Below, piece after piece: positions 1 to 63,029 of a stretch of 64,000 nt of DNA. Under the pieces are notes generated by a model. It was not told the DNA's origin. It worked only from the letters and a program-made list of their open reading frames with translations, and made no database searches. A program made the translations under genes and the position numbers. The stretch lies in the IMG/VR virus record IMGVR_UViG_3300045988_168437. The stretch is one strand, 5' to 3'. The DNA is from a virus. Position 1 is the first letter of the stretch. The number at the start of each line of letters is the position of its first letter.

Positions 1-2
1 AG

Positions 3-194
3 TTTATAAGCAGAGTACCATCTGGAATATATGGTGGTAAAAATGAAGACGGAGAAGAAGTTATAACAGTTGTATCTCAAGGATTTGGGATGACAATAAA
101 GACTAAACATCATGAGAAACCAAACTGGTGGGAATGTGTTGATTATGATGAACTTGGCTGCATGGAATGTGTAACATATGAAAGAGCAGATTAA
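3..194 (+). CDS. hypothetical protein, 3' fragment (gene starts upstream of window)
   Basis: Frame open from window edge to TAA 192-194; ends ...KPNWWECVDYDELGCMECVTYERAD*; co-oriented with downstream operon. Confidence 0.5.
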   Translation, partial: FISRVPSGIYGGKNEDGEEVITVVSQGFGMTIKTKHHEKPNWWECVDYDELGCMECVTYERAD

Positions 195-197
195 TTA

Positions 198-290
198 GAA
201 GGATAAATTCGAAACAGGTAGAATGAGGCAACTCATTTTACTTGTCTATAAGGTTAAGCTACTTATACTGACGAGATAGCTTAATCCTTC
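198..290 (+). ncRNA. type II hammerhead self-cleaving ribozyme (HH-1)
   Basis: Core CUGACGA 268-274 and GAAA 211-214; stem III 214-227/232-245 capped by GCAA tetraloop; GUC triplet 244-246 (predicted cleavage after C246); stem I 247-252/262-267; open stem II G275-C210, A276-U209, then 198-204/284-290; loop I 255-261 complementary to 277-283 (pseudoknot). Confidence 0.85.
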
Positions 291-312
291 AAAATGAAAG
301 GGGATAAAAAAG

Positions 313-840
313 ATGATGAAAAGAGAAAATGTTGTGAAATTTTTAGATTTATTACGTTCTGATGAAGTTAATGACGAAATAAAAGATTTATATATTGAAC
401 TATTAGAAGGACATATTCAAGATGCTCCAGGAACTCAAATTGAAATTATATTAGACTTAGACGGAGAAATTGATGAAAGATACTTTGTAGGAAATTCAAC
501 TAGAATGGATGTATATGAAGGCGATGCAATAGTTGTAGCAAGTATCAGATATGATGCAAACGTTACTTATGAAGACATGGGAGAATTATCAGATGCTTTA
601 GATGAATCTGAATATGAAAAATTCGTAGAATGGATATTTGCATACGAAGATATATCAGAAGATGATGAAAAAGAATATTTCGAAGAAAACTTTACATGGG
701 AAAATTTTTCAGAATTTAATCCTGATAGATTTAAAGAGCTAGAAGAAGAATCTTGGCAAGCAAATGTTGATTATTACGGATATGAAGAAATTGGGCAAAA
801 ATTATCTGAATGTATACAACAATTAGAAACTTTATTATAG
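313..840 (+). CDS. hypothetical acidic protein
   Basis: 175-aa ORF with SD-like aaagggga upstream; strongly D/E-rich; no family recognised. Confidence 0.6.
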   Translation: MMKRENVVKFLDLLRSDEVNDEIKDLYIELLEGHIQDAPGTQIEIILDLDGEIDERYFVGNSTRMDVYEGDAIVVASIRYDANVTYEDMGELSDALDESEYEKFVEWIFAYEDISEDDEKEYFEENFTWENFSEFNPDRFKELEEESWQANVDYYGYEEIGQKLSECIQQLETLL

Positions 841-856
841 GGGCAGCAATTGCTCC

Positions 857-913
857 TACTTTAAACCTACCAATGATGGTCCAAAGTCCATATGGAAAAA
901 GGTGATGGGAGTA
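857..913 (+). ncRNA. twister self-cleaving ribozyme (Tw-1, P1 type, no P3)
   Basis: P1 857-861/909-913; predicted cleavage U862/A863; P2 865-868/900-903; ACCAAUG linker; P4 876-879/888-891 with loop UCCAAAGU; 3' internal loop GAUGG 904-908. Nearly collinear with the rice Osa-1-4 twister as I recall it (..UAACACUGCCAAUGCCGGUCCCAAGCCCGGAUAAAAGUGGAGGG..). Confidence 0.8.
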
Positions 914-977
914 AATAAAGGCGAAGCTACTAAAATACTCGTCTATATATAAGAGTAGCAATTAAAAGGGGGTAAAA

Positions 978-1292
978 ATGAAGGTATATTTAGGGAATGC
1001 TTTTAGTTTACAAATGTTAGACACAACAAAGACTACAGATATAAAAGTAACACCAGTTGATGCATCAGTTGTAGCAAGTTCAGATTTTACATCAGTTATA
1101 GGTCATCCAGATACAGCTGCAGTAGTTTCAAACATCTTAGGAAAAGACGTAGCTTGTAATAGAGTTTCTGTTAGTTTAAGTAAAGGTGACATTTTATATG
1201 TAGCACAAGTTGTTGGTGGCAGACTTCCTGCTGGAGCTACCACTCTACCAGACGGATTTAGTTTAGTATTTTTAAAAGTTGTCATTCTATAA
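978..1292 (+). CDS. DUF1874 / STIV B116-like protein
   Basis: YLGNAFSLQML at N-terminus and IGHPDTAAVVSNILG...NRVSVSLSKGDILYV match the B116 pattern (FLTNAFSINML ... IGHDSTINLVNTL ... NRVEVKMNEGD) from memory; SD aaaaggggg. Confidence 0.75.
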   Translation: MKVYLGNAFSLQMLDTTKTTDIKVTPVDASVVASSDFTSVIGHPDTAAVVSNILGKDVACNRVSVSLSKGDILYVAQVVGGRLPAGATTLPDGFSLVFLKVVIL

Positions 1293-1357
1293 AAAGGTAG
1301 AAGGCTTATAGGAGTGTCTCAAACTCCTACATTATGTAAATGAAGGGAGAATTAAAA

Positions 1358-1495
1358 ATGAAAGTTAAAAAAGAAATTACAATTGAAGAAGAATTTGAAA
1401 TACATATGAAAAGCATGGAAGGGCATGTTTGCTATGGTTGCTCAGGTTGTAAGTTTGCTTACTATGGAGTTTGCCCATATGTTCAAGAGGGTTAA
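1358..1495 (+). CDS. small Cys-rich protein (45 aa)
   Basis: ATG 1358 preceded by SD gaagggaga; MKVKKEITIEEEFEIHMKSMEGHVCYGCSGCKFAYYGVCPYVQEG*; below ORF-track cutoff. Confidence 0.5.
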   Translation: MKVKKEITIEEEFEIHMKSMEGHVCYGCSGCKFAYYGVCPYVQEG

Positions 1496-1501
1496 TCCCT
1501 C

Positions 1502-1563
1502 TACTTTAAACTCACTTGACTAAGTCAAAAGGTCCAAAGTCCTTGAAAAGAGTGATGGGAGTA
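1502..1563 (+). ncRNA. twister self-cleaving ribozyme (Tw-2, with P3 hairpin)
   Basis: P1 1502-1506/1559-1563; predicted cleavage U1507/A1508; P2 1510-1513/1550-1553 (ACUC/GAGU versus ACCU/AGGU in Tw-1); extra P3 1516-1520/1524-1528; P4 1529-1532/1541-1544 (AAGG/CCUU versus AUGG/CCAU) with identical loop UCCAAAGU; GAUGG 1554-1558. Confidence 0.8.
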
Positions 1564-1583
1564 AATGAAAGGGGTAAAATGAT

Positions 1584-1859
1584 ATGAATAATTCTATTAA
1601 AAGATTAAAAGAAAAATTAATTGGAAAAGAATTCAAAGAAGAAGATTATAATAAAGAGTTAAATAATCTTGTAAAAGAATTTCATTTAGAGGCAAATACT
1701 TGTGATTTTGATTTTGACAGATTATATCACATTGGATATGAAGAAAAAGAAAATTGGGATGATGAATATGTTTGTAGTATACAAGTTAATTATATTCCTG
1801 TATATGATGAAAATGGATATCATGACTTTGATATCATAAAAATATTTGATGTGTTTTAA
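1584..1859 (+). CDS. hypothetical protein
   Basis: 91-aa ORF, SD aaagggg upstream. Confidence 0.6.
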   Translation: MNNSIKRLKEKLIGKEFKEEDYNKELNNLVKEFHLEANTCDFDFDRLYHIGYEEKENWDDEYVCSIQVNYIPVYDENGYHDFDIIKIFDVF

Positions 1860-1889
1860 TATAATTAAATCATATAGGGAGGTATGAAA

Positions 1890-2057
1890 ATGAGAACTTA
1901 CTTAGCAGATTATGAAGACGATAATTTTGAAACAATAATAGCGAATACAGATAATGAAGCTTACTTTGAAGCTCTTGACCATGAAGAAGAACATGGGACT
2001 TTATATAATCTTTTTGAAATTGATGATGACTACAATAAAATAAGAGAAGTTAAATAG
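1890..2057 (+). CDS. hypothetical small acidic protein (55 aa)
   Basis: ATG 1890, SD GGGAGG 1877-1882; MRTYLADYEDDNFETIIANTDNEAYFEALDHEEEHGTLYNLFEIDDDYNKIREVK*; stop TAG 2055-2057. Confidence 0.5.
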   Translation: MRTYLADYEDDNFETIIANTDNEAYFEALDHEEEHGTLYNLFEIDDDYNKIREVK

Positions 2058-2135
2058 AAGGCAAAATTCGAAACCGTGGTGGTCCACGGTCTGTAAGCAA
2101 TAGGCTACTTATACTGACGAGATAGCCTTGCCAAC
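2057..2135 (+). ncRNA. type II hammerhead self-cleaving ribozyme (HH-2)
   Basis: GAAA 2070-2073; stem III 2073-2079/2084-2090; GUC 2089-2091 (cleavage after C2091); stem I 2092-2097/2108-2113; CUGACGA 2114-2120; G2121-C2069; loop I 2102-2107 pairs with 2123-2128 (AGGCUA/UAGCCU versus AAGCUA/UAGCUU in HH-1). Confidence 0.85.
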
Positions 2136-2262
2136 AATAAAAAGGAAGGTAAGATAAAATAGCTATCAAGAACTCGTGAAAACGGGTGTTGAATAAATTA
2201 TCATTTTGGGAGAGGGTTGCCCTCTCCTATCCCCAATATAAATGGGAGAGAGGAGTATAATA

Positions 2263-2613
2263 ATGATAAATACTTATGCTTATGAAATAAAACCACATAT
2301 CTTTGACAGTATTATAGTTACTGTGAAAGATGATGATAATAACTATGTTGAATTATTAGCTATGAAAGATAAGACAATTGGGGATTATAGAACTTTTTTA
2401 CACGGTGAAGTAAATAGCACTATTTTCCAAAAAGATTATCGTAATAGTAAATATTATAAAAAGGTAGGCAGAGGTAGAATAAAGGACGAAAAAAGAACCC
2501 TAGATACAATTAGCAGATTAGTTGGGACAGGAAAACATATTATTCTTTTTCGTTTAGATAACTATATAAAAGATAATAATTTTGAAGGTGACATTAAAAT
2601 ATCATTTAAGTAA
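2263..2613 (+). CDS. hypothetical protein
   Basis: ORF track starts at 2242, but GGGAGAGAGGAG 2244-2255 looks like the SD for ATG 2263 (MINTYAYEIK...). Confidence 0.6.
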   Translation: MINTYAYEIKPHIFDSIIVTVKDDDNNYVELLAMKDKTIGDYRTFLHGEVNSTIFQKDYRNSKYYKKVGRGRIKDEKRTLDTISRLVGTGKHIILFRLDNYIKDNNFEGDIKISFK

Positions 2614-2623
2614 TATATATAAT

Positions 2624-2651
2624 AATCCCCTGATTGGGGGTTATTTTTTTG
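2624..2651 (+). terminator. intrinsic terminator ending the ribozyme operon
   Basis: Stem 2624-2630/2636-2642 (AAUCCCC/GGGGGUU) followed by AUUUUUUUG. Confidence 0.75.
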
Positions 2652-2683
2652 CTTAAAAATAATTTATTTTTTACAGAAATCAC

Positions 2684-2712
2684 TTGCAAGTTTTATATCA
2701 AAATGCTATAAT
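2684..2712 (+). promoter_or_regulatory. sigma70-type promoter
   Basis: TTGCAA 2684-2689, 17-bp spacer, TGcTATAAT with -10 at 2707-2712. Confidence 0.65.
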
Positions 2713-2734
2713 TAAATCAAAGGCGGTGAATAAT

Positions 2735-3025
2735 ATGAAAAATATTTCATTAGTGCAACTTAGAAAAGATTACAATTATCTAAATAGTAAAATTTCTTAT
2801 CATGTGTTAAATGAAGATGAACTATTAAATGAAGTTGTTCCTAAAATGTTGAGCGGGAAAATGGATTTAAAAAACTTTATTCTGTGGGCAATAAAAGATA
2901 CTATAACATATGTAGTAGAAGACAGAGAGGCAATGAATACAAAAGAAGACATTGAATTTATTGAATCAGATAAAAGATTTAAAAGGATTCTTGACAGATA
3001 CGATATTGATATAGAGGAGGTTTAA
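2735..3025 (+). CDS. hypothetical protein (tandem paralog A)
   Basis: ATG 2735 after SD aaaggcggtga; upstream part of the track ORF overlaps the promoter. Similar to the next ORF (LRKDYNYL.. / LRADFEYL.., NFILWAIKD / QFLLWSIWD). Confidence 0.6.
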   Translation: MKNISLVQLRKDYNYLNSKISYHVLNEDELLNEVVPKMLSGKMDLKNFILWAIKDTITYVVEDREAMNTKEDIEFIESDKRFKRILDRYDIDIEEV

Positions 3026-3026
3026 T

Positions 3027-3347
3027 ATGAATATAGAGCAACAATTAAAAGGATTAGAAATAAAACAATCTACAACTACTCTAAGAGCAGATTTTGAATA
3101 TTTAGATGATAATATCAATTGGTATCTAATTGATGAAGCAATATTAGTAACAGAAATTGCTCCAGGATTGCAATATGGAACACTAAATCTAAAACAATTT
3201 TTGCTTTGGAGCATCTGGGACATTATTGCTTTTGTTATTATAGAAAATCATGACGAAGATGATGTCAATTTTGTTAAAACAGACAGTAGGGTTAAAAGAA
3301 TCATAAGAAAATATGGTTTAAAAGAAAGTATAGAAAAATTACTATAG
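3027..3347 (+). CDS. hypothetical protein (tandem paralog B)
   Basis: 106-aa ORF, SD gaggagg; paralog of 2735-3025. Confidence 0.6.
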   Translation: MNIEQQLKGLEIKQSTTTLRADFEYLDDNINWYLIDEAILVTEIAPGLQYGTLNLKQFLLWSIWDIIAFVIIENHDEDDVNFVKTDSRVKRIIRKYGLKESIEKLL

Positions 3348-3352
3348 AAAGG

Positions 3353-4150
3353 ATGACAAAGATGTTAAAAAATAGTTACTGGAATCATACAGGAAAATAT
3401 CAAAATGAAAGTGAAGAATTAGAAAAATTAATACCTCACTGGGGTAGAACTACTAACCCTTATATGAACTTATTCATAGTTGCAAGTCAATTATACTATG
3501 ATGTTTATAACAATGGTGGTTGTAATATCGAGGATTGTTATGTTGATGATATTGAAAAATATATAAAACCTTATGCAAAGGAATTAGAAGGAATTAATTT
3601 TAAATGTTCATTAAGAACAATAGTTAATAATCTTATGAACGAAGAAAAATTAGAAAATTTCTTAAATTCCGTTATGGAATTTATTTCTGACAAAGACTTG
3701 TCTTATCGTAAATATTTAGCTTATTTTGATAGTAACAATCACCTTCTTTCTTATGATAAAAAAGAGGGTTATTATGAAATAAGTTTTGGTGAAAAAGAAG
3801 AATTTGAAAGATGGATAAACAACAGAAAAAATTCTGGGTATAAATTAATAGGAGGTATAGTGATGAAATATAGAGTTTGGTGGATACCGCAAATAGGTTA
3901 TGATGGTACTTTTTATGTACCTGTAAATTCTCCAGAAGAAGGACTAAAAATAATGTCAGTATTAGGTGCATATGATTTATTTCAATTAAAGAATAATATT
4001 AAACCAGACTTTTCAAATACAGGTGGCTTAGAAGTCTTTGAAGACGGAGAATGGGTAGATTACTATGATGAAGACGGCAGAGATATAGATGAACATTTTG
4101 AAGAAGATGTGAATATGCAAGATTTTATAGAAAAAGTTTATAATTTTTAG
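3353..4150 (+). CDS. hypothetical protein, possibly two fused modules
   Basis: 265-aa ORF; strong in-frame internal SD AGGAGG 3850-3855 plus ATG 3863 (MKYRVWWIPQ...). Confidence 0.6.
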   Translation: MTKMLKNSYWNHTGKYQNESEELEKLIPHWGRTTNPYMNLFIVASQLYYDVYNNGGCNIEDCYVDDIEKYIKPYAKELEGINFKCSLRTIVNNLMNEEKLENFLNSVMEFISDKDLSYRKYLAYFDSNNHLLSYDKKEGYYEISFGEKEEFERWINNRKNSGYKLIGGIVMKYRVWWIPQIGYDGTFYVPVNSPEEGLKIMSVLGAYDLFQLKNNIKPDFSNTGGLEVFEDGEWVDYYDEDGRDIDEHFEEDVNMQDFIEKVYNF

Positions 4151-4163
4151 AGGGGGTTTTAAA

Positions 4164-4466
4164 ATGAAGGTTTTAATTAAGAATATAGGAGAAAACACTA
4201 AAATTACAGATATTGAAAATGATTTACAATCATTGCAAAATCTAGTAGGAGGGTATATTGAGGCATTACCATTAACTAAAGATGTATTATTAATATGTAA
4301 TGAAGAAGGAAAGCTAAAAGGACTTCCTGTAAATTTCAACATAGTCATAAATGGAAAGATAGAATCTATCGTAGGGAATGTATTTTTCGTAGGAAAAAAT
4401 GATTCTGATTTCGATAGTCTCACTAATGAACAAATCATTATATTACAAGATTATCTTGATAATTAA
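4164..4466 (+). CDS. DUF3846-like protein
   Basis: MKVLIKNIGENTKITDIENDLQSLQNLVGGYIEALPL...ICNEEGKLKGLPVN fits the DUF3846 pattern seen on phages and conjugative elements (recollection). Confidence 0.6.
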   Translation: MKVLIKNIGENTKITDIENDLQSLQNLVGGYIEALPLTKDVLLICNEEGKLKGLPVNFNIVINGKIESIVGNVFFVGKNDSDFDSLTNEQIIILQDYLDN

Positions 4467-4500
4467 TATTCCAAAATAAAAAATAAAATATATAAGGGAT

Positions 4501-4531
4501 AGAGCAGCTTAATTGCTGCTTTATTTTTTTA
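4501..4531 (+). terminator. intrinsic terminator
   Basis: Stem AGCAGC 4503-4508 / GCUGCU 4515-4520, then UUAUUUUUUU. Confidence 0.7.
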
Positions 4532-4551
4532 TAAAAAATTCCATATAATAG

Positions 4552-4580
4552 TTGACATACTTACATAAAAGTATTAATAT
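4552..4580 (+). promoter_or_regulatory. sigma70-type promoter
   Basis: TTGACA 4552-4557, 17 bp, TAATAT 4575-4580. Confidence 0.6.
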
Positions 4581-4633
4581 ATAAGTATAGTTAGTTTTAC
4601 ACAAAAACAAAATTTCTAAAAGGGGATGAAGAT

Positions 4634-5368
4634 ATGTTTACACTAGGCAACAGTAAAATTAAAACGGCACTAAAGAATATATCACAAAGGAAGTATGATT
4701 GTGATGTGTTTAAAATGGAAGTAAATAGTATATCAGAAATATGTAAAAAAGAATTTCAAGCAGAATATAGTAAGATGGAAAAATTCTCTTTCAACAAAGG
4801 ATATCTTGAATTTACATTTAAAGACCAAGCAGTAATTGGTTATTTTGAAATACAAGGATTTAATATAAGTTTAATTATTGCTCCCACAAATAATGTTTAT
4901 GGCAGTAGTTTTATCTTTAATGTAAATATAAAAGATATGCAAGGAGAAGTTGGATATGTAAAGAATTCTTTATTAATATTAGTGGAAGAAGATGAATCTT
5001 TGCATAAGAAAATTGGTGGAATTGGGAAAGCATTATGCGAAGGAATTTTAGTTGCAAATTATTTAGCTCAAACAAATCCAACAATAATAAAAGACAATGA
5101 AACTAGGATTGTTAAAAAGTCAAATAAAAAGGGAAAACATAAAAATAAAACTATCAGGAAAATAAACCTTACTAATATAAGACATGTAAAAGAATACAGT
5201 AATACTAATATAAATACAGATAAAAGAAATTACGAAAGACATACTGAATCTTGGACTGTAAGAGGGCATTACAGACATTATAAAAGTGGTAAGGTAGTTT
5301 GGATAGAACCATCTACTAGAGGGACTGGAAAACCTCAAGGAAAAGTTTACAATATAAATGTTGAATAA
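4634..5368 (+). CDS. hypothetical protein with basic C-terminal motif (paralog of 57981-58715)
   Basis: 244 aa; C-terminus RHTESWTVRGHYRHYKSGKVVWIEPSTRG matches RRTESWKVKGFWRTYKNGKKVWIKPSVRG in the other copy. Confidence 0.65.
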   Translation: MFTLGNSKIKTALKNISQRKYDCDVFKMEVNSISEICKKEFQAEYSKMEKFSFNKGYLEFTFKDQAVIGYFEIQGFNISLIIAPTNNVYGSSFIFNVNIKDMQGEVGYVKNSLLILVEEDESLHKKIGGIGKALCEGILVANYLAQTNPTIIKDNETRIVKKSNKKGKHKNKTIRKINLTNIRHVKEYSNTNINTDKRNYERHTESWTVRGHYRHYKSGKVVWIEPSTRGTGKPQGKVYNINVE

Positions 5369-5381
5369 GGGGGACTAAAAC

Positions 5382-5756
5382 ATGGTAGAAGTAAATAAAT
5401 TATACAGATGCAGACAAGATATAGTTTTAAATCCAAGTACAGTTGATAAAATCAATATATCATTAGACTTAGATATGGGAAATACAGTTATGGCAACTAT
5501 TGATGATGTTGGGATATATAAACCTATAACAATTTCAGAATTTAATTTAGCAAAAGAAATACTTAAGAAAAAAGCAGAGCAGCTAATTATAGAGAATAAA
5601 GAAGTGGACCATGTAATATACTCTATAGTAGAAACTGACTATGAAGGTTATTGTAATCGAATAATTATATGTCTTATTCCTCTTACTCATGAAGAATATG
5701 TTAGAAGAATGAGACTTTTAAATGACACAACAAAGTGTTTTGTATTAAATAGATAA
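5382..5756 (+). CDS. hypothetical protein
   Basis: 124-aa ORF, SD aaggggga. Confidence 0.6.
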   Translation: MVEVNKLYRCRQDIVLNPSTVDKINISLDLDMGNTVMATIDDVGIYKPITISEFNLAKEILKKKAEQLIIENKEVDHVIYSIVETDYEGYCNRIIICLIPLTHEEYVRRMRLLNDTTKCFVLNR

Positions 5757-5770
5757 TAGGAGGGTTTTAT

Positions 5771-6718
5771 ATGAGTAATTGTTATAAAGAGTTTTTAGGA
5801 TATATGAAAGATGTGCAAGGAGTTGATAATAAAACTCTAGTATGTTACGAAAAAAATTTAAAAGACTTTAACGAGTATATTTTTGGCGGGAAAGCAGATA
5901 CTACTTTTGAAGAAATAGCAAACTTAAAAGTATCTGAAATACAAACAAAATGGCTCAATAGACTTAAAGATGAAAAAGGATATAAATCAAATACCTTAAA
6001 TAACCGCATAATTACACTTACAAGACTTTACACATATATGGTAGGAGAAAACTATACTACTGTAAATAAAGGCAAACTAATACCTCATTACAAAGGCGAC
6101 AAGAAAGTTAAAAAAGAAATATCAACTGATGATTATATATCTTTATTAGAAGAACTTAGAAAAAATAGAGATAAAAACTTCACTAGTCTTAGAAATTGGT
6201 TTATGGTAGAATTCTTTTTAGCAACTGGACTTCGTAGAGCGGAAATCATAGCATTAGACATCGAAGATGTAAATATTCTTACTGGTGAAATAAAAGTCAC
6301 TAGAAAATATGACGAAGGTGTTAAATTTGGTAAAGAAAGAATAGAGTATCTTCCAGAAATACTTTTAGATGATTTACACTATTATCTTTCACGCAGATTA
6401 GACATAGAAACAGATAGTGATGCTTTCTTTATTTCTACTCATAAGAAAAGAATGTGTGCATCTAATATCAATAAGTTGCTTAATAAGATAGCAGATAATA
6501 ACGGCATGAAAATACACCCTCATATGCTTAGAGCGGGATTTTCAAGCAATACCATTAATAGTGGTAGGGTAGAATCATATGAAGTCGCAGAAGCGATGGG
6601 ACACAGTAATAAGACTACTACTTTGAACTATTATCATAAGTCTAATACAGAAGTATTAAAGAAAGTTGCCAACAGTAATATGATATTTGACAAAAGACAA
6701 GATGATAATGTAATATAA
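5771..6718 (+). CDS. tyrosine recombinase / integrase (XerC/D-like)
   Basis: LATGLRRAEIIALDIEDV (Arg box), HPHMLRAGF (HxLR), GHSNKTTTLNYYH (GH..Y) catalytic signature. Confidence 0.85.
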   Translation: MSNCYKEFLGYMKDVQGVDNKTLVCYEKNLKDFNEYIFGGKADTTFEEIANLKVSEIQTKWLNRLKDEKGYKSNTLNNRIITLTRLYTYMVGENYTTVNKGKLIPHYKGDKKVKKEISTDDYISLLEELRKNRDKNFTSLRNWFMVEFFLATGLRRAEIIALDIEDVNILTGEIKVTRKYDEGVKFGKERIEYLPEILLDDLHYYLSRRLDIETDSDAFFISTHKKRMCASNINKLLNKIADNNGMKIHPHMLRAGFSSNTINSGRVESYEVAEAMGHSNKTTTLNYYHKSNTEVLKKVANSNMIFDKRQDDNVI

Positions 6719-6751
6719 AAATAGTATAAATAAAACATAGAGGTGATTAAT

Positions 6752-7441
6752 ATGATGAAAAACAAAAACTCAATTGGGTTCTATATAGAAAGTTTAGGAT
6801 TCGATTTAGATAAAGTTTGGGATTTTGAAAAGAATACAAAAAATCCTGATGAAGTGACAAAAATGTCAAATGTTGAAATATGGTTAAAATGTGTTAATCA
6901 TGATTATCACGGCAGTTATAAAACAACTGCTAAGGCTTACTATTATTCCTCTTCTACAGAGGGATATGGTTGCCCTTACTGTTCTAAAATAAGTCCAAAT
7001 AGAAAGGTCCACATACTTGATAGTTTTGCATATAAACATCAAGATTGGGCAAAATGGTGGGATAGTTCTAATAAGAAAACTCCTTTTGAATGCAAAGGAA
7101 ATGAACAACATGAGACATTTAAATTTACTTGTCCTGTTTGTGGATATAGTTTTGAAAGTACATTAATGTTCCTTTCCGATTTAAAATTTAAACATGTATG
7201 TGAATCAGATAAAACAAGAGGTAAGGGGTATGATGAATATCAAGACTATAGAAAACAACAACAGTTTGAAAGGGCAGCAAAGCATATAAAGAAATCTGGT
7301 AAAGGAGAATGGGAACTTATAGAATTCAATGGAACAAACAGACCTGGTACTGTTAAGCATCATTGTGGAGCAACTAAGACAGTTACTAGAATATCTTCTT
7401 TATATAATAAAAATATAGTTTGTCCTAATTGTGATAAATAG
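6752..7441 (+). CDS. zinc-ribbon protein (DUF4379-like repeats)
   Basis: ATG 6752 after SD GAGGTGA; W.KC...H.......GCPYCS plus CPVCG...CPNC motifs. Confidence 0.6.
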   Translation: MMKNKNSIGFYIESLGFDLDKVWDFEKNTKNPDEVTKMSNVEIWLKCVNHDYHGSYKTTAKAYYYSSSTEGYGCPYCSKISPNRKVHILDSFAYKHQDWAKWWDSSNKKTPFECKGNEQHETFKFTCPVCGYSFESTLMFLSDLKFKHVCESDKTRGKGYDEYQDYRKQQQFERAAKHIKKSGKGEWELIEFNGTNRPGTVKHHCGATKTVTRISSLYNKNIVCPNCDK

Positions 7442-7470
7442 TTGACATACTTATAAAAAAATAGTAAGAT
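7442..7470 (+). promoter_or_regulatory. sigma70-type promoter
   Basis: TTGACA 7442-7447, 17 bp, TAAGAT 7465-7470; 160-nt leader follows. Confidence 0.55.
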
Positions 7471-7631
7471 AAAAAAAAGAGGTAGATGTCGAACCCATCT
7501 ACCTTAAACAATATTGATATAATCAATCTTTAGAATTGTTTTTAGAGTTAATCTTTTTAAATTGTATTTTTATAATACCATAAAAGGATTGATTATGTCA
7601 AGAAGTACTGCTATTTTTTAAGGAGAATTTT

Positions 7632-8588
7632 ATGAAAAAAAAGGAAGAGAAATTAGAACACTTAAGAGAATACGGCATAGTCAATTTAAATGACGGCAGA
7701 TTAGTATTTTCGGCTTGTCATGATGTATCAAAAGAAGAAAATCTTACGATAATTAACGATTTAAACAAAGAAGACAAAGAAAAGAGAAACAAAATATTAG
7801 AATTCAAAAGATTTAATAGAAAGTTAGGAGGATTTTATTTTATGGTTTACAGTAATAACAAAGCTTTATTTTCTGAAATTCCAGAAGTTAAAAATGGGGA
7901 CTTACCTAAATTGCTTTATTTAGCCTCATACATGGATTATGAGAATAGACATGGGAATAAGATATGTAAGGTAATAGGAGGAAATAAAAAAGTCCCTATG
8001 CCTAAGAGAGAAGTTTTTAAGTTAATAAGATTTGCAGATTCAACAAAGGCAAAAAATTGGTTTTTAAAAATGGAGAAATTAGGACTATTATATATTTATG
8101 ATGATTCAGTAGAACTAAATGAAAAATATTTTATTAAAGGCTGTACTGGAACAGAATATAAATATAGTCGAGTTTATATTAACACGATAAGGGGATTATA
8201 TACTAATTGTGATTTAAGAAAACATAGACAAATTGGCTTAATATTAAGACTATTGCCTTATATGAATATAAATTCAAATATACTTTGTAGCACTAGTGAA
8301 GATGAAATTCACAAACTAGATAGATATGAAATTGCAGAAATACTTGATGTAAAAGACGATAAGAGAAATTTATCTAAAATGATAAGAACTCTTTTAAATC
8401 TTAAAGTTGATTTTGAAAATTATAAATTGCAGGTATTTAAATTAGTAAAAGTATATGACACCAATTTTGTTGAAGAATATTTTGTAGTCAATCCAATTTT
8501 AGCATATAAAGGAGATGACTATTATAAGATGCAAGAAATCCTAAAAACATATTTCTTTGATGAAGATGATATTAAAATAATAAGATAA
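7632..8588 (+). CDS. Rep-like replication initiator candidate (paralog 1)
   Basis: 318 aa; paralog of 16073-17008 (LGGFYFMVY/LGGFIHVCY, LLYLASYMDYEN/LIYLATYIDYNN, YFVVNPILAYKGDD/YFITNPLLIWKGND); followed by an iteron array. The Rep function is inferred from context only. Confidence 0.5.
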   Translation: MKKKEEKLEHLREYGIVNLNDGRLVFSACHDVSKEENLTIINDLNKEDKEKRNKILEFKRFNRKLGGFYFMVYSNNKALFSEIPEVKNGDLPKLLYLASYMDYENRHGNKICKVIGGNKKVPMPKREVFKLIRFADSTKAKNWFLKMEKLGLLYIYDDSVELNEKYFIKGCTGTEYKYSRVYINTIRGLYTNCDLRKHRQIGLILRLLPYMNINSNILCSTSEDEIHKLDRYEIAEILDVKDDKRNLSKMIRTLLNLKVDFENYKLQVFKLVKVYDTNFVEEYFVVNPILAYKGDDYYKMQEILKTYFFDEDDIKIIR

Positions 8589-17176: not shown

Positions 17177-18142
17177 ATGAATAAATTTATAAAAGAAATT
17201 GAGAAAACAAATAAAATAGCCTTATTAACTTACGGAGGCAGCTATGCATATGGAACAAATGTAGAAGGCTCTGATATTGATTTAAGGGGTATATTTCTAC
17301 CTTCTAAATTAGAAATATTATCTATGACATCAGGAGACAAAGCATTGACTGACAATGAAACAGATACAGTTATGTACCCTTTAAAACAAATGATTCAACT
17401 GTTATGTAATGCAAATCCAAATACAATTGAAGTTTTAGGCACGAGAGAGCAAGATATATTCATAATATCAGAGGAAGGGCAAATGCTTAGGAAAAATGTA
17501 AATTTATTTTTAACTAAGAGTAAAGTTCATTCTGCCTTTTTAGGATATGCACAAAATCAATTAAGAAGACTTAAAAATGCAATAGCTCGAGATGATTTAG
17601 AACAGGCAGAAAAAGAGAAACATATTTTAAAATCAGTTGAAAAGAGAATGTCTGCTTTCGAACAGTCATATGCTCCAATAACAAATGGAAAATTAAAGCT
17701 GCACATAGAAAAATCAAATAAAGAAGATTTAGAAGAGGAAATTATGATAGACATGTGCTTAGAAAATTATCCATTACGAGACTGTAAAAAAATGTTAGAT
17801 GAAATGGCAATAACCTTAAAACAATATGGAAAATTAAATCACAGAAATAAAAAGAAAGACGAACAACATCTTCTGAAACATTCTATGCACCTTGTGAGAC
17901 TTTATTTAATGGGAATTGATATATTACAAGGAAATGGAATTAAAACTTACAGAGAGGACGACAGAGAGTTATTATTAGATATTAGAAATGGCAAATATTC
18001 TTATGAACAAATTTATAATATGGCAGAAAAATTAGAAGAAGAATTTAAAGATGTACTGCAAACAAGTAAATTGCCTGAAAAATTAGATTATAACAAAATA
18101 AATAACCTTGTTGCAGAAATAAATAAACAAATGTTAAAATAA
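17177..18142 (+). CDS. nucleotidyltransferase (Pol-beta superfamily, RlaP/PF10127-like)
   Basis: N-terminal TYGGSYAYGTNVEGSDIDLRGIF (GS...SD.D NTase motif). Confidence 0.7.
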   Translation: MNKFIKEIEKTNKIALLTYGGSYAYGTNVEGSDIDLRGIFLPSKLEILSMTSGDKALTDNETDTVMYPLKQMIQLLCNANPNTIEVLGTREQDIFIISEEGQMLRKNVNLFLTKSKVHSAFLGYAQNQLRRLKNAIARDDLEQAEKEKHILKSVEKRMSAFEQSYAPITNGKLKLHIEKSNKEDLEEEIMIDMCLENYPLRDCKKMLDEMAITLKQYGKLNHRNKKKDEQHLLKHSMHLVRLYLMGIDILQGNGIKTYREDDRELLLDIRNGKYSYEQIYNMAEKLEEEFKDVLQTSKLPEKLDYNKINNLVAEINKQMLK

Positions 18143-18217: not shown

Positions 18218-18304
18218 ATGAGAATGACAAGTAGAAGATTCAATAATATAGTTAAGAAAATGATTAAGGAGTTGATAGAAGATGATACTTGCAAAGAAAG
18301 TTAG
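18218..18304 (+). CDS. possible 28-aa basic peptide overlapping the tnpB start
   Basis: ATG 18218 after SD aaaggggg; MRMTSRRFNNIVKKMIKELIEDDTCKES*. Confidence 0.25.
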   Translation: MRMTSRRFNNIVKKMIKELIEDDTCKES

Positions 18305-19397
18305 ATTGCGCCCAAGTGAACTACAAGAAGAAAAATTATGGAAATCAGTAGGGACTGCAAGATTTATTTATAATTGGACTTTAAATAGGCAAGAAGAAAA
18401 TTATAAAGGTGGTGGTAAATTCATACCTGATAGTGTTCTTAGAAAAGAAATAACTCAATTAAAGAAAACTGACTTAAGTTGGTTAAATGAAGTATCTAAT
18501 AATGTTGCAAAACAAGCTGTAAAAGATGCCTGTGATTCATATAAAAGATTCTTTAAAGGATTGTCAGGTAAACCTAGATTTAAAAGTAGGAAAAGAAGTA
18601 AGAAGTCTTTTTATCATGACAATGTTAAACTTAAAGTTAAAGATAATAAATTAGTTAAGATTGAAAAAGTTGGGTGGATAAAAACCAATGAACAATTACC
18701 TATTGGAGTTAAATATACCAATCCGAGAATTAGTTATGATAATAAGTATTGGTATTTATCTGTAGGAATTGAACAGGAAGGAATCCAAGAAGAATTAACA
18801 GAAATATCATTAGGAATAGATTTAGGGTTGAAAAACTTAGCAATTTGTTCCGATGGTGCAATATATAAAAATATAAATAAAACTTGTACAGTCAAAAAAA
18901 TCGAAAAGAAACTAAAAAGATTACAAAGACAAATAAGTAGAAAGTATGAAAAAAATAAAAAAGGAAAGGAGTATGTCAAAACTAAAAATATTATAAAACT
19001 TGAAAAGCAGATACAACAAGTACATAGAAGGTTGACTAACATTAGAAATAACTATCTTCATCAAACTACGACAAGTATAGTGAAAACCAAACCATACAGA
19101 GTTGTAATAGAAGATTTAAGTGTTTCTAATATGATGAAAAATAAACATTTATCTGATGCTATAAGGAAACAAGGATTCTATGAATTCAGAAGACAACTTG
19201 AATACAAGTGTAAATTTAGAGGAATTAAGTTAGTCGTAGCAGATAGATTTTATCCATCGTCAAAAATTTGTAGCCAATGTGGAGAGATTAAGAAGGATTT
19301 AAAGCTATCCGATAGAGTATACAAGTGTGATTGTGGGCTTGTGATTGATAGAGATTTAAATGCAAGTATTAATCTTTCTAAATATAAATTAGCATAA
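18282..19397 (+). CDS. tnpB: TnpB (IS200/IS605-family OrfB, RNA-guided nuclease)
   Basis: KKVRLRPSELQEEKLWKSVGTARFIYNWTL N-terminus; RuvC triad candidates GIDLGLKNLA, VIEDLSVSNM, DRDLNASINL; zinc ribbon CSQCGE...YKCDCG. Confidence 0.85.
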   Translation: MILAKKVRLRPSELQEEKLWKSVGTARFIYNWTLNRQEENYKGGGKFIPDSVLRKEITQLKKTDLSWLNEVSNNVAKQAVKDACDSYKRFFKGLSGKPRFKSRKRSKKSFYHDNVKLKVKDNKLVKIEKVGWIKTNEQLPIGVKYTNPRISYDNKYWYLSVGIEQEGIQEELTEISLGIDLGLKNLAICSDGAIYKNINKTCTVKKIEKKLKRLQRQISRKYEKNKKGKEYVKTKNIIKLEKQIQQVHRRLTNIRNNYLHQTTTSIVKTKPYRVVIEDLSVSNMMKNKHLSDAIRKQGFYEFRRQLEYKCKFRGIKLVVADRFYPSSKICSQCGEIKKDLKLSDRVYKCDCGLVIDRDLNASINLSKYKLA

Positions 19398-19560
19398 TAT
19401 CATTAATAAGATAATGCTAATATGTAGGATGTGTTGTATCCGAATTTACGCCCTTGGAGAGTTATATCAAACGAAAGTAGGTTGTTATTTATAATTTCCA
19501 AAATCGAATTCGTAGAACAGGGAATTAAACAAGATTTATAGATATTTATAGATTTTTGGC
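19280..19560 (+). ncRNA. candidate omega/reRNA scaffold of TnpB (boundaries not determined)
   Basis: By analogy with characterised TnpB loci, the guide RNA overlaps the 3' end of tnpB and the right end. Hairpins are visible at 19390-19420 and 19494-19527. No right-end boundary could be fixed by eye. Confidence 0.3.
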
Positions 19561-44414: not shown

Positions 44415-45872
44415 ATGAAAAAGAAAAACAACGATGTTATCATTGAGTTTTTAGGGACCAGTAGAGACGAAGTTACTGGCTCATGTGTGCTAGTTTCATA
44501 TGTAAATTCAGATAACGAAAGGGAAAATATCCTAATCGAATGTGGAATGAATCAGGGGTGTCCTACTATATTATCTGACTATAATACAAATAAAAGAATG
44601 GTTGAGAAAGTTCCGTTTTCAAACATTAAATATATATTTGTTAATCATGTCCATGTAGACCATATAGGAAACCTTCCTACTGCCTTCAACAGAGGATTTA
44701 CAGGAGAGGTAATAACAACAGAAGACAATAGAGAATTAATGATTCCCTTACTTAATGACACATATACAATACATTTAAAAAATGTAAAAAAAATAAATGA
44801 AAAAGGAAAGAATTTAGATTTACTCTTTAATAAAATAGATGTACATACTGCTATTCATAAAACTAGAATCTTTGAAAAAAATATTATTCATAAATTAAAT
44901 GAAACTCTTTCTTTTAGATTCTTGCCAAATAATCATTGCGTAGGAGCTTGTCAATTAGAATTGTTTATTAAGAAACCAAGTGGGAAAATTGCTAAAATAT
45001 TTTATTCATCAGATTTAGGCTCTAATTACAATTCTAAGTACTCTCCTTTCTTGGATGATATAGTATATTCAACTACTTCTGACATAGCTATATTCGAAGC
45101 GACATATGGCAATAAAGACAGAAATTTTGCTAAGAAAAACGTAATCAACGAAAGAAAAGATTTAATTACACAAATAAAAAAATATACTAGTATGAATCAT
45201 CGAGTTTTAATACCTTCTTTTTCATTTAGTAGAAGTCAAATGCTTATGTCATTTTTATATGATAATTTAAAAGACGATAAAGATTTTGACAACATTTCAG
45301 TTATAGTCGATTCTAAACTATTAAATGACATTAATGGAGTTTATAGCAAAATACTTAAAGGAGAAAATAAAGAATATTGGGAACAGGTTTTAAGTTGGAG
45401 CAATTTTCATTTTGTTAAGGAATTTAAAGATACCGAAACCATTATTAAGAAGAAAGATATCCCAATGGTGATAATTTCAAGCGCTGGAATGTGTAATGCA
45501 GGGCATGTAGTAAGTTATGCTAAATCTATATTGCTAAATCCTAATGACTGCATGATATTTGTTGGTTATTGTGGCTTAAACACTTTAGGAAGTATGATTC
45601 AGAATAATAGACTAAATAGCGTTACAATAAACAGAGAAATATACGAAAAAAAATGCGATATCATTTCTTACAAAACTTTTTCTTCTCATATACAACAAGC
45701 AGAACTTATTGATTATATGAAAAAAATCAATACAGGAAAAATTTTATTGCATCATGGTAGTACTAGCAGTAAAGAGGAACTTAAATTAGCAGCTAAAGAA
45801 GAATTGTTCAAGGCAAATAAAACAACTCCTATTGAAATAGTAACAAATAAGAACAAGGAGTTTAGAGTTTAA
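44415..45872 (+). CDS. MBL-fold beta-CASP nuclease
   Basis: NHVHVDHIGNLP (HxHxDH); beta-CASP-like D, H (FSSH) and H (LHHGS) positions. Confidence 0.7.
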   Translation: MKKKNNDVIIEFLGTSRDEVTGSCVLVSYVNSDNERENILIECGMNQGCPTILSDYNTNKRMVEKVPFSNIKYIFVNHVHVDHIGNLPTAFNRGFTGEVITTEDNRELMIPLLNDTYTIHLKNVKKINEKGKNLDLLFNKIDVHTAIHKTRIFEKNIIHKLNETLSFRFLPNNHCVGACQLELFIKKPSGKIAKIFYSSDLGSNYNSKYSPFLDDIVYSTTSDIAIFEATYGNKDRNFAKKNVINERKDLITQIKKYTSMNHRVLIPSFSFSRSQMLMSFLYDNLKDDKDFDNISVIVDSKLLNDINGVYSKILKGENKEYWEQVLSWSNFHFVKEFKDTETIIKKKDIPMVIISSAGMCNAGHVVSYAKSILLNPNDCMIFVGYCGLNTLGSMIQNNRLNSVTINREIYEKKCDIISYKTFSSHIQQAELIDYMKKINTGKILLHHGSTSSKEELKLAAKEELFKANKTTPIEIVTNKNKEFRV

Positions 45873-60773: not shown

Positions 60774-63029
60774 TTATTTTGGTAATTTAACCACAAATGC
60801 AGAATATACTTTTTCATCACTCTTAACCAAACAGAGTGCATGAAATCTTTTCAAATTAAGGAAATCAGACTCTGTATAGCCTTCCTTGATAAATAGTTCC
60901 TTAAGTTCAAAGAAGTTTCTTATATCCGCTCCAGCAATGAGTATGAAACTCATACCACTACTTAATATTGCTTCTTTACACTTCTTATTACATTGATTAA
61001 GAAAATGCAAGCTTATTGTTGGAATAAAAGAGAATTTTCTACATTCAGTTAAAATGTCTTGGAATATGATTTGAGCAGTTGGAAATAAATTAATTTCATC
61101 AATAAATATATGAGTTTTAGTCTTGGAGCTAATTTGTTTAGCTAACCATACTTTGCTAAGATAAAATGTAGCAATTAAATCTCTTATACTTCTATTTGTA
61201 AAATCTTCTTCTCTAGCCTTTATTAATATAATTTTATTTTCATTAAGAGCTTTAACAAAATTAATATTATTTGCAGCAGATTTATTAAAAGCTAATTTAG
61301 TATATAAGTTTGTTTTTAATATACTGATTCTATCTATAATTCCATCAATTTTTGTATCATAATTTTCAACATTTCCGTTTTTATCTACTTTATCTAATTC
61401 CATTAAGTCATTTATTTCATCTTCTAATAATACCTTGTCATCGCTACTTAAACCATGTAGTAAGTCTTCTCTTGAATTAGGACTCATTAAAACTCTTATA
61501 ATGTCTTTAAAACTTGAATTTGAGTCTTTATAAAAAGATATTGTACATGCTGCATTAAAATATCTTAACATTCGTGGAGTTAATTTTGTTTCTGCATTTA
61601 TAGTATTTAAAAGCATATAAAGTTGAGATGATTTTTCCATACATTTCGCTATTTTTCTATACTTATCAGGACTATTACAGGTAAGTTCGTTAAAACAAAA
61701 TCCTTGCAGTTGATGAACATCTGAACAATCTATTTCTATTAATCTATTCTTTGGAGTTACTGCTTTAATATTTTCTGCTAATTCGCAGTCTTTTATGATG
61801 TCTAAAACTACTAAGCCATCTCCTTTTTGTATTATACTCTCTGCTAAACGAGTCATATTATTAGTTTTACCTGAACCCATTCCTCCTATTAAAACTCTTC
61901 CCAATCTACTAAAGTTTTTATCAGTAGAATAATATACTTTTTCTCCTTTTAAGGAATGTGCCATAAATAAATCTCCTGTTTTCAAAGAATTTGGAATGGC
62001 TTTATCATATATATCATTGTGTTCAATACTTTTATATTGTTTAATAATAGAATCTCCAGGTAATGCTACGAAATTAGCATCTTCATATATAGAAGTATTA
62101 AGAACTTTTACATATGGTAATACTGGTTTAGTGATGTCTATTTCTTTTTTTAATCTTTTGCTAACAAGTTCATTGTCATTACTCACTTCACTATATGTCC
62201 CTATGAGACTCTCTGCAATCGTTTTAGAGCGACTTTTGGAGTTTCCGTTAGTAGTTATTAGTATTTGTGTTTTACAAATGTCAGAATTGCTTTTATCAAG
62301 TGTCTTTTGACTTAACTTATCAAATACAACTTTTCTTTCAGTTTGTTTTATATCAAATATAAAATCTAATGTAGAGTTTATAAAATCAATACTATAATCT
62401 AATATTTTTATTACTATATTAAGGAGTTTATTAGATGTATATTTTACAGAACTTTCTTTATATTCTTTTATGAATTTTTGACAAGAAGCTTTAAAATAGT
62501 TTAGCTGCTTTTCAGAGGTAGGAATAAAATTATATAGAATGCTAACTTCTTCATCACTTTGTAAAAGTTCTATAATTGTCATATTTGCATTAAGAAGCTC
62601 ATTGTTTCTCATATCTGCATTAGTAGAGAAAAAATCTTTTTTCTTGTACATAAGTTGATATTGAATTCCATTTTCTATTAGTGGAATATTATCAAGTTCT
62701 TCTATTTCTACCGACTTCCAAACCTCTTTGAATTTTACTTTAAATTTAGAATAAAAGATTTTTGGAACAATGAAATAGAAATTAATTTTTTCTTTAGTAA
62801 TATAGACATAATAGCTAGCTTTAAGTTGCGTTTTTATTACTAATTTTTTATCTTCTATACATATTAATTTATTTAGGCTTATAAACATTTTATTGACTAA
62901 TCTTAAAATATCATGAGTTTTATTGTTTTTTATAGATTTTGTAGGAATGAGCTTAAGATAAATATATTCCTGATTTTTTATTTCAAAATATTTAGATATA
63001 GGAATACTAAGCATTTGTAATAACTCCAA
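60774..63029 (-). CDS. FtsK/HerA/TraD-like P-loop ATPase (751 aa)
   Basis: Walker A LIGGMGSGKTNN followed by GLVVLDIIKD; Walker B HIFIDEINLF; exact family not assigned. Confidence 0.65.
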   Translation of the reverse strand: MELLQMLSIPISKYFEIKNQEYIYLKLIPTKSIKNNKTHDILRLVNKMFISLNKLICIEDKKLVIKTQLKASYYVYITKEKINFYFIVPKIFYSKFKVKFKEVWKSVEIEELDNIPLIENGIQYQLMYKKKDFFSTNADMRNNELLNANMTIIELLQSDEEVSILYNFIPTSEKQLNYFKASCQKFIKEYKESSVKYTSNKLLNIVIKILDYSIDFINSTLDFIFDIKQTERKVVFDKLSQKTLDKSNSDICKTQILITTNGNSKSRSKTIAESLIGTYSEVSNDNELVSKRLKKEIDITKPVLPYVKVLNTSIYEDANFVALPGDSIIKQYKSIEHNDIYDKAIPNSLKTGDLFMAHSLKGEKVYYSTDKNFSRLGRVLIGGMGSGKTNNMTRLAESIIQKGDGLVVLDIIKDCELAENIKAVTPKNRLIEIDCSDVHQLQGFCFNELTCNSPDKYRKIAKCMEKSSQLYMLLNTINAETKLTPRMLRYFNAACTISFYKDSNSSFKDIIRVLMSPNSREDLLHGLSSDDKVLLEDEINDLMELDKVDKNGNVENYDTKIDGIIDRISILKTNLYTKLAFNKSAANNINFVKALNENKIILIKAREEDFTNRSIRDLIATFYLSKVWLAKQISSKTKTHIFIDEINLFPTAQIIFQDILTECRKFSFIPTISLHFLNQCNKKCKEAILSSGMSFILIAGADIRNFFELKELFIKEGYTESDFLNLKRFHALCLVKSDEKVYSAFVVKLPK

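Follow-up and report, generated by a model that had tools for sequence, protein, structure and literature searches.

Type II hammerhead ribozymes share a consensus in which loop I forms a pseudoknot of at least 4 bp with the nucleotides that immediately follow a very short stem II; experiments in which this pseudoknot was mutated and then rescued have demonstrated that fast cleavage at 0.5 mM Mg2+ requires it (PMC3088659). The co-location of hammerheads and twisters in bacteria and phages led to twister-sister, pistol, and hatchet (PMC6765202; PMC10085705). A role in mRNA processing has been proposed but is unproven for bacterial hammerheads and twisters, and what hammerheads do in bacteria and phages is still described as elusive (PMC6765202).

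The candidate described here, HH-1, is located in a 64-kb stretch of DNA from a large AT-rich phage (G+C = 27.6%; the whole stretch analyzed is referred to below as the window). HH-1 resembles the type II hammerheads of Perreault et al. 2011 (PMC3088659; Rfam RF02276) in its permutation, its core, a 2-bp stem II, and a pseudoknot between loop I and the 3' tail, and it has a habitat in common with them, namely several copies flanking single genes or short blocks in phage-like DNA. It differs from RF02276 in that it is AT-rich, is missed by Rfam, has a 14-bp stem III, can form a longer pseudoknot without a linker, and carries a 7-bp outer helix. The type II hammerheads of Desulfovibrio vulgaris, active in vivo by cyPhyRNA-seq (PMC8782182), also occur beside hypothetical or phage-like genes, a likeness drawn by description, but they sit in a GC-rich background and at three dispersed loci as opposed to a dense array. 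The array around HH-1 is similar to the co-located ribozymes described previously (PMC6765202; PMC10085705) in that hammerheads alternate with twister-like RNAs in intergenic positions on one strand, and a RAGATH-family RNA is present in the window. Unlike those cases, it holds 11 candidates in 7.8 kb, a figure for this array alone, and all four of its twister-like RNAs are sub-threshold. Taken together, the comparative data argue that HH-1 is a cleavage-competent type II hammerhead with a loop I pseudoknot, a reading given a probability of about 0.85.

Architecture and detection of HH-1

Relatives with the same type II layout were gathered from viral, metagenome, and genome collections and amounted to 153 distinct sequences. 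Three alignments were used: A1, 27 sequences that align without gaps, each having a 6-bp stem I and a 9-nt loop; A2, in which 65 type II hammerheads from metagenomes were aligned and neither the window nor its close relatives were included; and A3, composed of 17 hammerheads from the window's own phage clade. The closest relative of the window is the 138-kb IMG/VR contig L032, and a metagenome contig, L219, matches window positions 1-2535 over its positions 5263-7797 at 99.4% identity and reaches 5.3 kb further upstream. The elements of HH-1, all on the + strand, are as follows.

198-290, + strand: HH-1, type II hammerhead candidate, from a base-by-base reading of 181-320
198-204, + strand: 5' strand of the outer closing helix, GAAGGAU, partner 284-290
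209-210, + strand: stem II positions 11.2 and 11.1 (U209, C210), partners A276 and G275
211-213, + strand: core G12 A13 A14 (GAA), invariant in alignments A2 and A3; GAAA occupies 211-214
214-245, + strand: stem III hairpin, A15.1-U16.1 plus 13 more pairs, with a GCAA loop at 228-231
244-246, + strand: cleavage triplet GUC, from the sequence
246, + strand: C17 (C246), predicted scissile bond C246/U247, from the position of GUC relative to stems III and I
247-267, + strand: stem I hairpin with loop I, UAUAAG (247-252) with CUUAUA (262-267), 9-nt loop at 253-261
268-274, + strand: core CUGACGA (C3 U4 G5 A6 C7 G8 A9), invariant save N7 in A1, A2, and A3
275-276, + strand: stem II positions 10.1 and 10.2 (G275, A276), pairs G275-C210 and A276-U209
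277-283, + strand: 3' strand of the pseudoknot, UAGCUUA, the 3' tail right after stem II, partner 255-261
284-290, + strand: 3' strand of the outer closing helix, AUCCUUC, partner 198-204

These elements occur in the type II order (11.x, GAA, stem III hairpin, C17, stem I hairpin, CUGANGA, 10.x), and the conserved hammerhead core is complete, with CUGANGA, GAA, A15.1-U16.1, and an H17 that is not G. The 10.1-11.1 position is a G-C pair (G275-C210) adjoined by A276-U209, and neither pair varies among the 17 clade sequences. Stem III runs for 14 pairs from A214-U245 to G227-C232 and includes two G.U pairs, G217.U242 and G221.U238. In loop I, UAAGCUA (255-261) is the perfect complement of UAGCUUA (277-283), and an eighth pair, U254-A284, is possible, though A284 can alternatively pair with U204; the pseudoknot with the nucleotides just 3' of stem II would therefore reach 7-8 bp (254/255-261 with 277-283/284), where the consensus has at least 4 bp. 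An initial annotation of this DNA had placed GAAA, GUC, stem I, CUGACGA, and G275-C210 at coordinates that agree exactly with the sequence and with an independent architecture scanner. Its 14-bp stem III capped by GCAA was equally exact, G.U pairs included, and its 7-nt complement between loop I and the tail was correct and can be extended by the eighth pair.

The bare gapped core motif has no excess over chance in 64 kb (4 matches, with 6.2 expected), and such patterns were rejected as evidence by themselves because of this frequency. The full 93-nt HH-1 stretch folds better than its shuffles (z = -6.35). A type II scanner that needs the core motifs, a stem I of at least 4 bp, a stem III of at least 3-4 bp, and the 10.1-11.1 pair returned exactly two sites in the 64 kb, HH-1 and 2069-2121, the latter within a second candidate, HH-2. 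A 14-mer scan of viral contigs yielded a real hammerhead at approximately 10 of 117 loci, the others being mostly chance matches, and a search of the INPHARED phage collection with window positions 1-6000 returned three trivial matches and no annotated relative.

A covariance model, R1, was built from A2 and run against the 64-kb window with filters off. The two best matches were HH-1 (206-286, 55.9 bits, E 4.8e-12) and HH-2 (2065-2132, 59.6 bits, E 5.3e-13), both E-values being for the 64-kb window. The next-best match had 12.6 bits (E 0.58), leaving HH-1 and HH-2 as the only real matches, and the score of HH-1 falls inside the range of metagenomic and genomic family members.

The check proposed in the initial annotation, cmsearch with the Hammerhead_II model, gave a different outcome. 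Rfam 15 reported no hammerhead in the window, either at the gathering threshold and E<=1 for the whole window or at E<=10 for 100-1400 and 185-300; HH-1 thus stays below the Hammerhead_II gathering score of 37 bits, and 185-300 is silent even at the most permissive of these settings. As no scan reported any hammerhead, Rfam neither confirms nor refutes HH-1. It should be noted that one of nine related loci scanned, L123:625-691, does pass Hammerhead_II, at 43.5 bits against the gathering score of 37. This locus has the same sub-architecture as HH-1, with the AAUUCGAAAC...CUGACGAGAUAGCC frame common to both, and was part of the R1 training set. Because L123 passes Rfam, holds the HH-1 frame, and contributed to R1, HH-1 is linked to the curated family through its relatives. 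Judging from the L123 alignment, the Rfam Hammerhead_II consensus is GC-rich with a stem III of 6 bp, whereas HH-1 is AT-rich. The failure of Rfam to report HH-1 is taken here as a sensitivity limit of the curated model and as no argument against membership.

Covariation and clade-specific helices

The pseudoknot was no criterion in the selection of relatives, and for this reason a permutation test of loop I against the 3' tail is independent of how the family was assembled. Family-wide, the best Watson-Crick complement between the two segments has a mean of 4.69 bp for own pairs versus 2.91 bp for mismatched pairs; 0 of 1000 permutations reach the observed mean, and the family holds 91 different pseudoknot helices. 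A complement of at least 7 bp, the length seen in HH-1, occurs in 0.4% of mismatched family pairs (101 of 23,020). Within A1, 87% of pseudoknot cells are paired in a fixed-column count (n = 27), and one pair, 11/37, is found as all four Watson-Crick types (GC 9, AU 8, UA 5, CG 2). The covariation score of the A1 pseudoknot is 0.842, compared with 0.209 for column shuffles and at most 0.124 with the partner slid. Stem I of the same alignment has every cell paired (100%), and each of its 6 pairs covaries, though its pairing is partly by construction, stem I having been a selection criterion.

The same pattern is seen at closer range in A3, in which 94% of cells are paired and 9 pairs, distributed across stem III, stem I, and the pseudoknot, have changed on both sides. 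Pairing reaches 98% in stem III and 97% in stem I, with compensatory changes in each, and 4 of the 6 outer pairs of stem III have double changes. Both an orthologue of HH-1 (L032:2109-2188) and a paralogue (L219:4097-4178) retain its long stem III via several double substitutions, and the distal half of the HH-1 stem has compensatory changes relative to both. These data show, at the level of predicted structure, a three-way junction with a complete catalytic core for the HH-1 RNA, and likewise a predicted pairing of loop I with the nucleotides that immediately follow the 2-bp stem II on its 3' side. The assignment in the initial annotation, a type II hammerhead with a loop I pseudoknot, is upheld by the features that can be tested in sequence, by the R1 matches, by the covariation of the pseudoknot, and by L123 passing Rfam.

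Several features of HH-1 are particular to its clade. The stem III of 14 bp compares with a family mode of 6-8 bp and is found in 3 of 153 sequences. In most family members the pseudoknot starts after an unpaired UA, whereas HH-1, HH-2, and their relatives can form it right from stem II onward, with a length of up to 7-8 bp, versus a family mean of 4.7 bp (8 bp in 2 of 153). Two extra pairs, U260-A278 and A261-U277, are clade-specific and abut the 2-bp stem II. The pair A261-U277 is missing in 5 of 17 clade members and may therefore be non-essential. A loop I of 8 nt, fully paired and with a single linker nucleotide, may be strained.

Additionally, a 7-bp outer helix (198-204/284-290) is predicted to close the whole HH-1 domain and adds -6.7 kcal/mol to the nested HH-1 fold. 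The register of this helix shifts by one column between copies, which rules out a fixed-column pair count, and it was instead assessed by a per-sequence search with a permutation control. At least 8 different sequences form the helix at the same position within the clade (L032, L132, L174, and L219), and the comparison shows it as a predicted element of HH-1. Outside the HH-1 clade the helix is sporadic, and most family members are without it. This distribution bears on how the pseudoknot partner is described. The initial annotation had named it the internal loop of stem II, wording that is valid only because the HH-1 phage clade adds the outer closing helix, which formally makes 277-283 the 3' side of an internal loop; in the family and in the published consensus, the partner is the 3' tail after a stem II of 1-2 bp.

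The ribozyme array and its gene context

HH-1 is one of several candidate self-cleaving RNAs in this part of the phage genome, and the elements accompanying it in the window are as follows.

297-315, + strand: Shine-Dalgarno-like AAAGGGGA (297-304) and ATG (313-315) of ORF 313-840, from the sequence; ribosome-binding site at 300-303
858-912, + strand: twister-P1-like RNA 1, Rfam 34.4 bits (E 2.3e-05; gathering score 67.2, hence sub-threshold); same operon as HH-1, in the gap after ORF 313-840
1503-1562, + strand: twister-P1-like RNA 2, Rfam 46.6 bits (E 3.5e-07; gathering score 67.2, hence sub-threshold); same operon as HH-1, in the gap after ORF 1340-1495
2057-2135, + strand: HH-2, paralogous type II hammerhead, R1 59.6 bits, C17 = C2091
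2621-2645, + strand: terminator-like hairpin and T run, likely end of the HH-1/HH-2 transcription unit

HH-2 has a short stem III (7 bp, UGGU loop), a pseudoknot of AGGCUA (2102-2107) with UAGCCU (2123-2128), and an outer helix of GGCA (2060-2063) with UGCC (2129-2132). An identical 23-mer is common to HH-1 and HH-2, and the compensatory pseudoknot change that the initial annotation had reported between them, an exchange of A-U for G-C, is real in the sequence. The longer contig L219 extends this picture: R1 finds hammerheads at 148, 2080, 2457, 2855, 4097, 5468 (HH-1), and 7327 (HH-2), and sub-threshold Rfam matches to twister-P1 are located at 995, 3564, 6120, and 6765. This amounts to 7 hammerheads and 4 twister-like RNAs in 7.8 kb, with 11 of 11 on the coding strand and between small ORFs. 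Sub-threshold twisters occur at matching places in L032 and L219.

Not all copies have an intact core. An extra U between A9 and G10.1 (CUGAUGA-U-GAUAGCC) is present in L032:1728-1810, L032:3701-3784, and L132:1919-1989, the second of these being the HH-2 orthologue, and at L219:2457-2525 GUC is replaced by GCC (U16.1 to C). With R1 scores of 37.7-52.2 bits, the extra-U and GCC copies appear to be natural core variants or decaying copies.

The gene upstream of HH-1 ends with the stop codon TAA at 192-194, and the outer helix begins 4 nt later. Placement before a gene is also common in the family, where a Shine-Dalgarno sequence and start codon lie at most 60 nt downstream in 109 of 146 members (75%), most often 15-25 nt downstream of the hammerhead, versus upstream in 19 of 146. 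The window is a replication and nucleotide-metabolism region with a DNA polymerase, NrdD, RecJ, a DnaB-like helicase, and a primase, while the proteins near HH-1 are small and mostly unannotated (one STIV B116-like, one superinfection-exclusion gp17-like). The transcription unit predicted to hold both HH-1 and HH-2 likely ends at 2621-2645, after which a promoter-like site with an extended -10 is located at 2684-2712. Before 2621 there is no terminator-like hairpin of more than 5 stem pairs, only one weak 5-pair stem inside an ORF (1979-1996). Stem III of HH-1 was also considered as a terminator, a reading that was rejected because no U run follows it.

Gene content between the ribozymes varies. 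The near-identical phage contig L174 is without window ~922-1858 (compared over window 1-2440), with junctions in or beside twisters, and in L032 the space from the second twister to HH-2 is occupied by another ORF; the cassettes thus differ between contigs, whereas the ribozymes bordering them persist.

Further structured elements were observed in the same region. Right after the first twister, a conserved 65-nt element (913-977, +) contains GGCGAAG followed by a GCUACU...AGUAGC hairpin with a 22-nt loop; the matching place in L032 (2819-2879) has GUUACC...GGUAAC, a compensatory change. Rfam offers no match for the element at E<=10. Between ORF 978-1292 and ORF 1340-1495 lies a hairpin, UAGGAGU-GUCUCAA-ACUCCUA (1308-1328, +), with a stem that is kept by compensation, since L032 has GGGAGU...ACUCCC at the same place. 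After HH-2, an element of ~110 nt (2133-2241, +) with the hairpin GGGAGAGGG-UUG-CCCUCUCC belongs to no Rfam family; it is 91% conserved in L032:3793-3888, although the ORF that follows it (2242-2613) is absent from L032. Elsewhere in the window, a 371-aa TnpB-type protein (18282-19397, +; Pfam HTH_OrfB_IS605, OrfB_IS605, and Cas12f1-like_TNB) is followed after 54 nt by a full-length RAGATH-18 RNA (19451-19524, +; 67.6 bits). A pairing of TnpB with a RAGATH-18-derived guide RNA, as at 18282-19524, has been described (PMC11061315).

Predicted consequences of cleavage and competing readings

Should HH-1 be active, the pseudoknot would hold stems I and II parallel, the arrangement for fast cutting at cellular Mg2+, and the RNA would cut itself between C246 and U247 within a polycistronic mRNA of the phage early region, during or soon after transcription. 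Stem III (14 bp) would form the 3' terminus of the upstream message, which would carry a 2',3'-cyclic phosphate. The downstream message would start with a 5'-OH on the paired U247-A267, flush on the stem I hairpin, approximately 50 nt before the ribosome-binding site at 300-303 and the start codon at 313, with the stem I/pseudoknot domain in between. Terminal hairpins, at the 5' as at the 3' end, shield Gram-positive mRNAs from exonucleases, and the glmS precedent indicates that RNase J1 can sense 5'-OH ends; ends of this kind would therefore give each cistron a stability of its own. HH-1, HH-2, and the twister-like RNAs together could convert one transcript into gene-sized messages and uncouple stability and translation. 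Consequences of this type for mRNA fate are put at about even odds.

A more elaborate function for the array, beyond a set of independent cutters, is quite improbable. Such a 'ribozyme-punctuated operon' might produce tethered messages that can be re-ligated or circularized, or might provide module boundaries for the shuffling of early-gene cassettes. The former is conceivable because the outer helix carried by every hammerhead of the clade would keep both cleavage products paired and because each excised gene-sized RNA would have a 5'-OH and a 2',3'-cyclic phosphate, the ends used by RtcB-type ligases. Among 46 window ORFs scanned, which cover 38 of the 50 ORFs of at least 150 aa, no RNA ligase or RtcB was found; 10 ORFs around the ribozymes were compared with both Pfam and PHROGs, a further 30 from the set of at least 150 aa with Pfam alone, and 6 with PHROGs alone. 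One of these 6, the 751-aa ORF at 60774-63029, had its sole match in a family of unknown function. The search turned up only a beta-CASP/RMMBL metallo-beta-lactamase RNase (RNase J/CPSF-like; 44415-45872, +) and an RlaP-type 'RNA repair pathway' nucleotidyltransferase (17177-18142, +).

The predicted folding energies raise the question of how often the active structure would form. The nested minimum-free-energy fold of HH-1 (-32.4 kcal/mol) contains an alternative hairpin, 255-264/273-283, which consists of the pseudoknot helix plus C262-U264/G273-G275. This hairpin abolishes stem I and ties up G8, A9, and G10.1. For the hammerhead, the nested fold amounts to -25.3 kcal/mol, to which a pseudoknot duplex worth approximately -7 kcal/mol is still to be added. 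Because the two states are close in energy, misfolding of a fraction of HH-1, or regulation, is possible. It is unlikely that HH-1 is conditional, with the active fold decided by the alternative hairpin or by a ribosome that terminates at 192-194 and melts the outer helix; whether cleavage takes place would then be a matter of folding kinetics or of upstream-gene translation. In favor of conditional cleavage, HH-1 and HH-2 both have the alternative hairpin as their nested minimum-free-energy structure, and the 5' strand of the outer helix follows the upstream stop codon by 0-4 nt in HH-1 and HH-2 as well as in the copies on L032. Yet the alternative helix is largely the pseudoknot plus three pairs and follows from the shared 23-mer with no need for selection, covariation specific to C262-U264/G273-G275 is absent, these positions being core or stem I, and most family members have no outer helix for a ribosome to melt.

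The decayed copies within the same array (the GCC copy at L219:2457-2525 and three relatives with an extra U after A9 and lower scores), together with the silence of Rfam on a hammerhead at this site, could be taken to indicate that HH-1 is itself an inactive relic, or a purely structural intergenic RNA such as a stabilizing hairpin set or an RNase entry site. This is very unlikely, as the invariant core of HH-1 is intact while its stems and pseudoknot change by compensation, the signature of selection for the catalytic fold, and its R1 score is within the family range. Least probable is a role at the DNA level, in which the ~70-nt units would serve as homology blocks for cassette exchange or deletion between related phages and RNA cleavage would be secondary. 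The identical 23-mer in HH-1 and HH-2, the differing ORFs between conserved ribozymes in the window and L032, and the loss of window ~922-1858 from L174 with junctions at twisters would all fit such a role, but compensatory changes that keep RNA pairing intact, and a strand-specific position shortly before ribosome-binding sites, would be superfluous for homology blocks. Exchange of this kind may coexist with the ribozymes as a side effect of their function.

The preferred reading thus remains that of a cleavage-competent type II hammerhead. The comparisons support HH-1 as a putative Rfam-invisible addition to the kind described in 2011, with clade-specific embellishments, in a notably dense array. 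HH-1 leaves what is known of hammerhead structure and catalysis unchanged, and instead adds a well-supported hammerhead missed by the curated Rfam model and, with its relatives, an AT-rich, helix-closed sub-group with a long stem III in large phages of anaerobes. With each candidate just 5' of a ribosome-binding site, the array offers a compact natural test bed for asking why phages and bacteria punctuate operons with self-cleaving RNAs.
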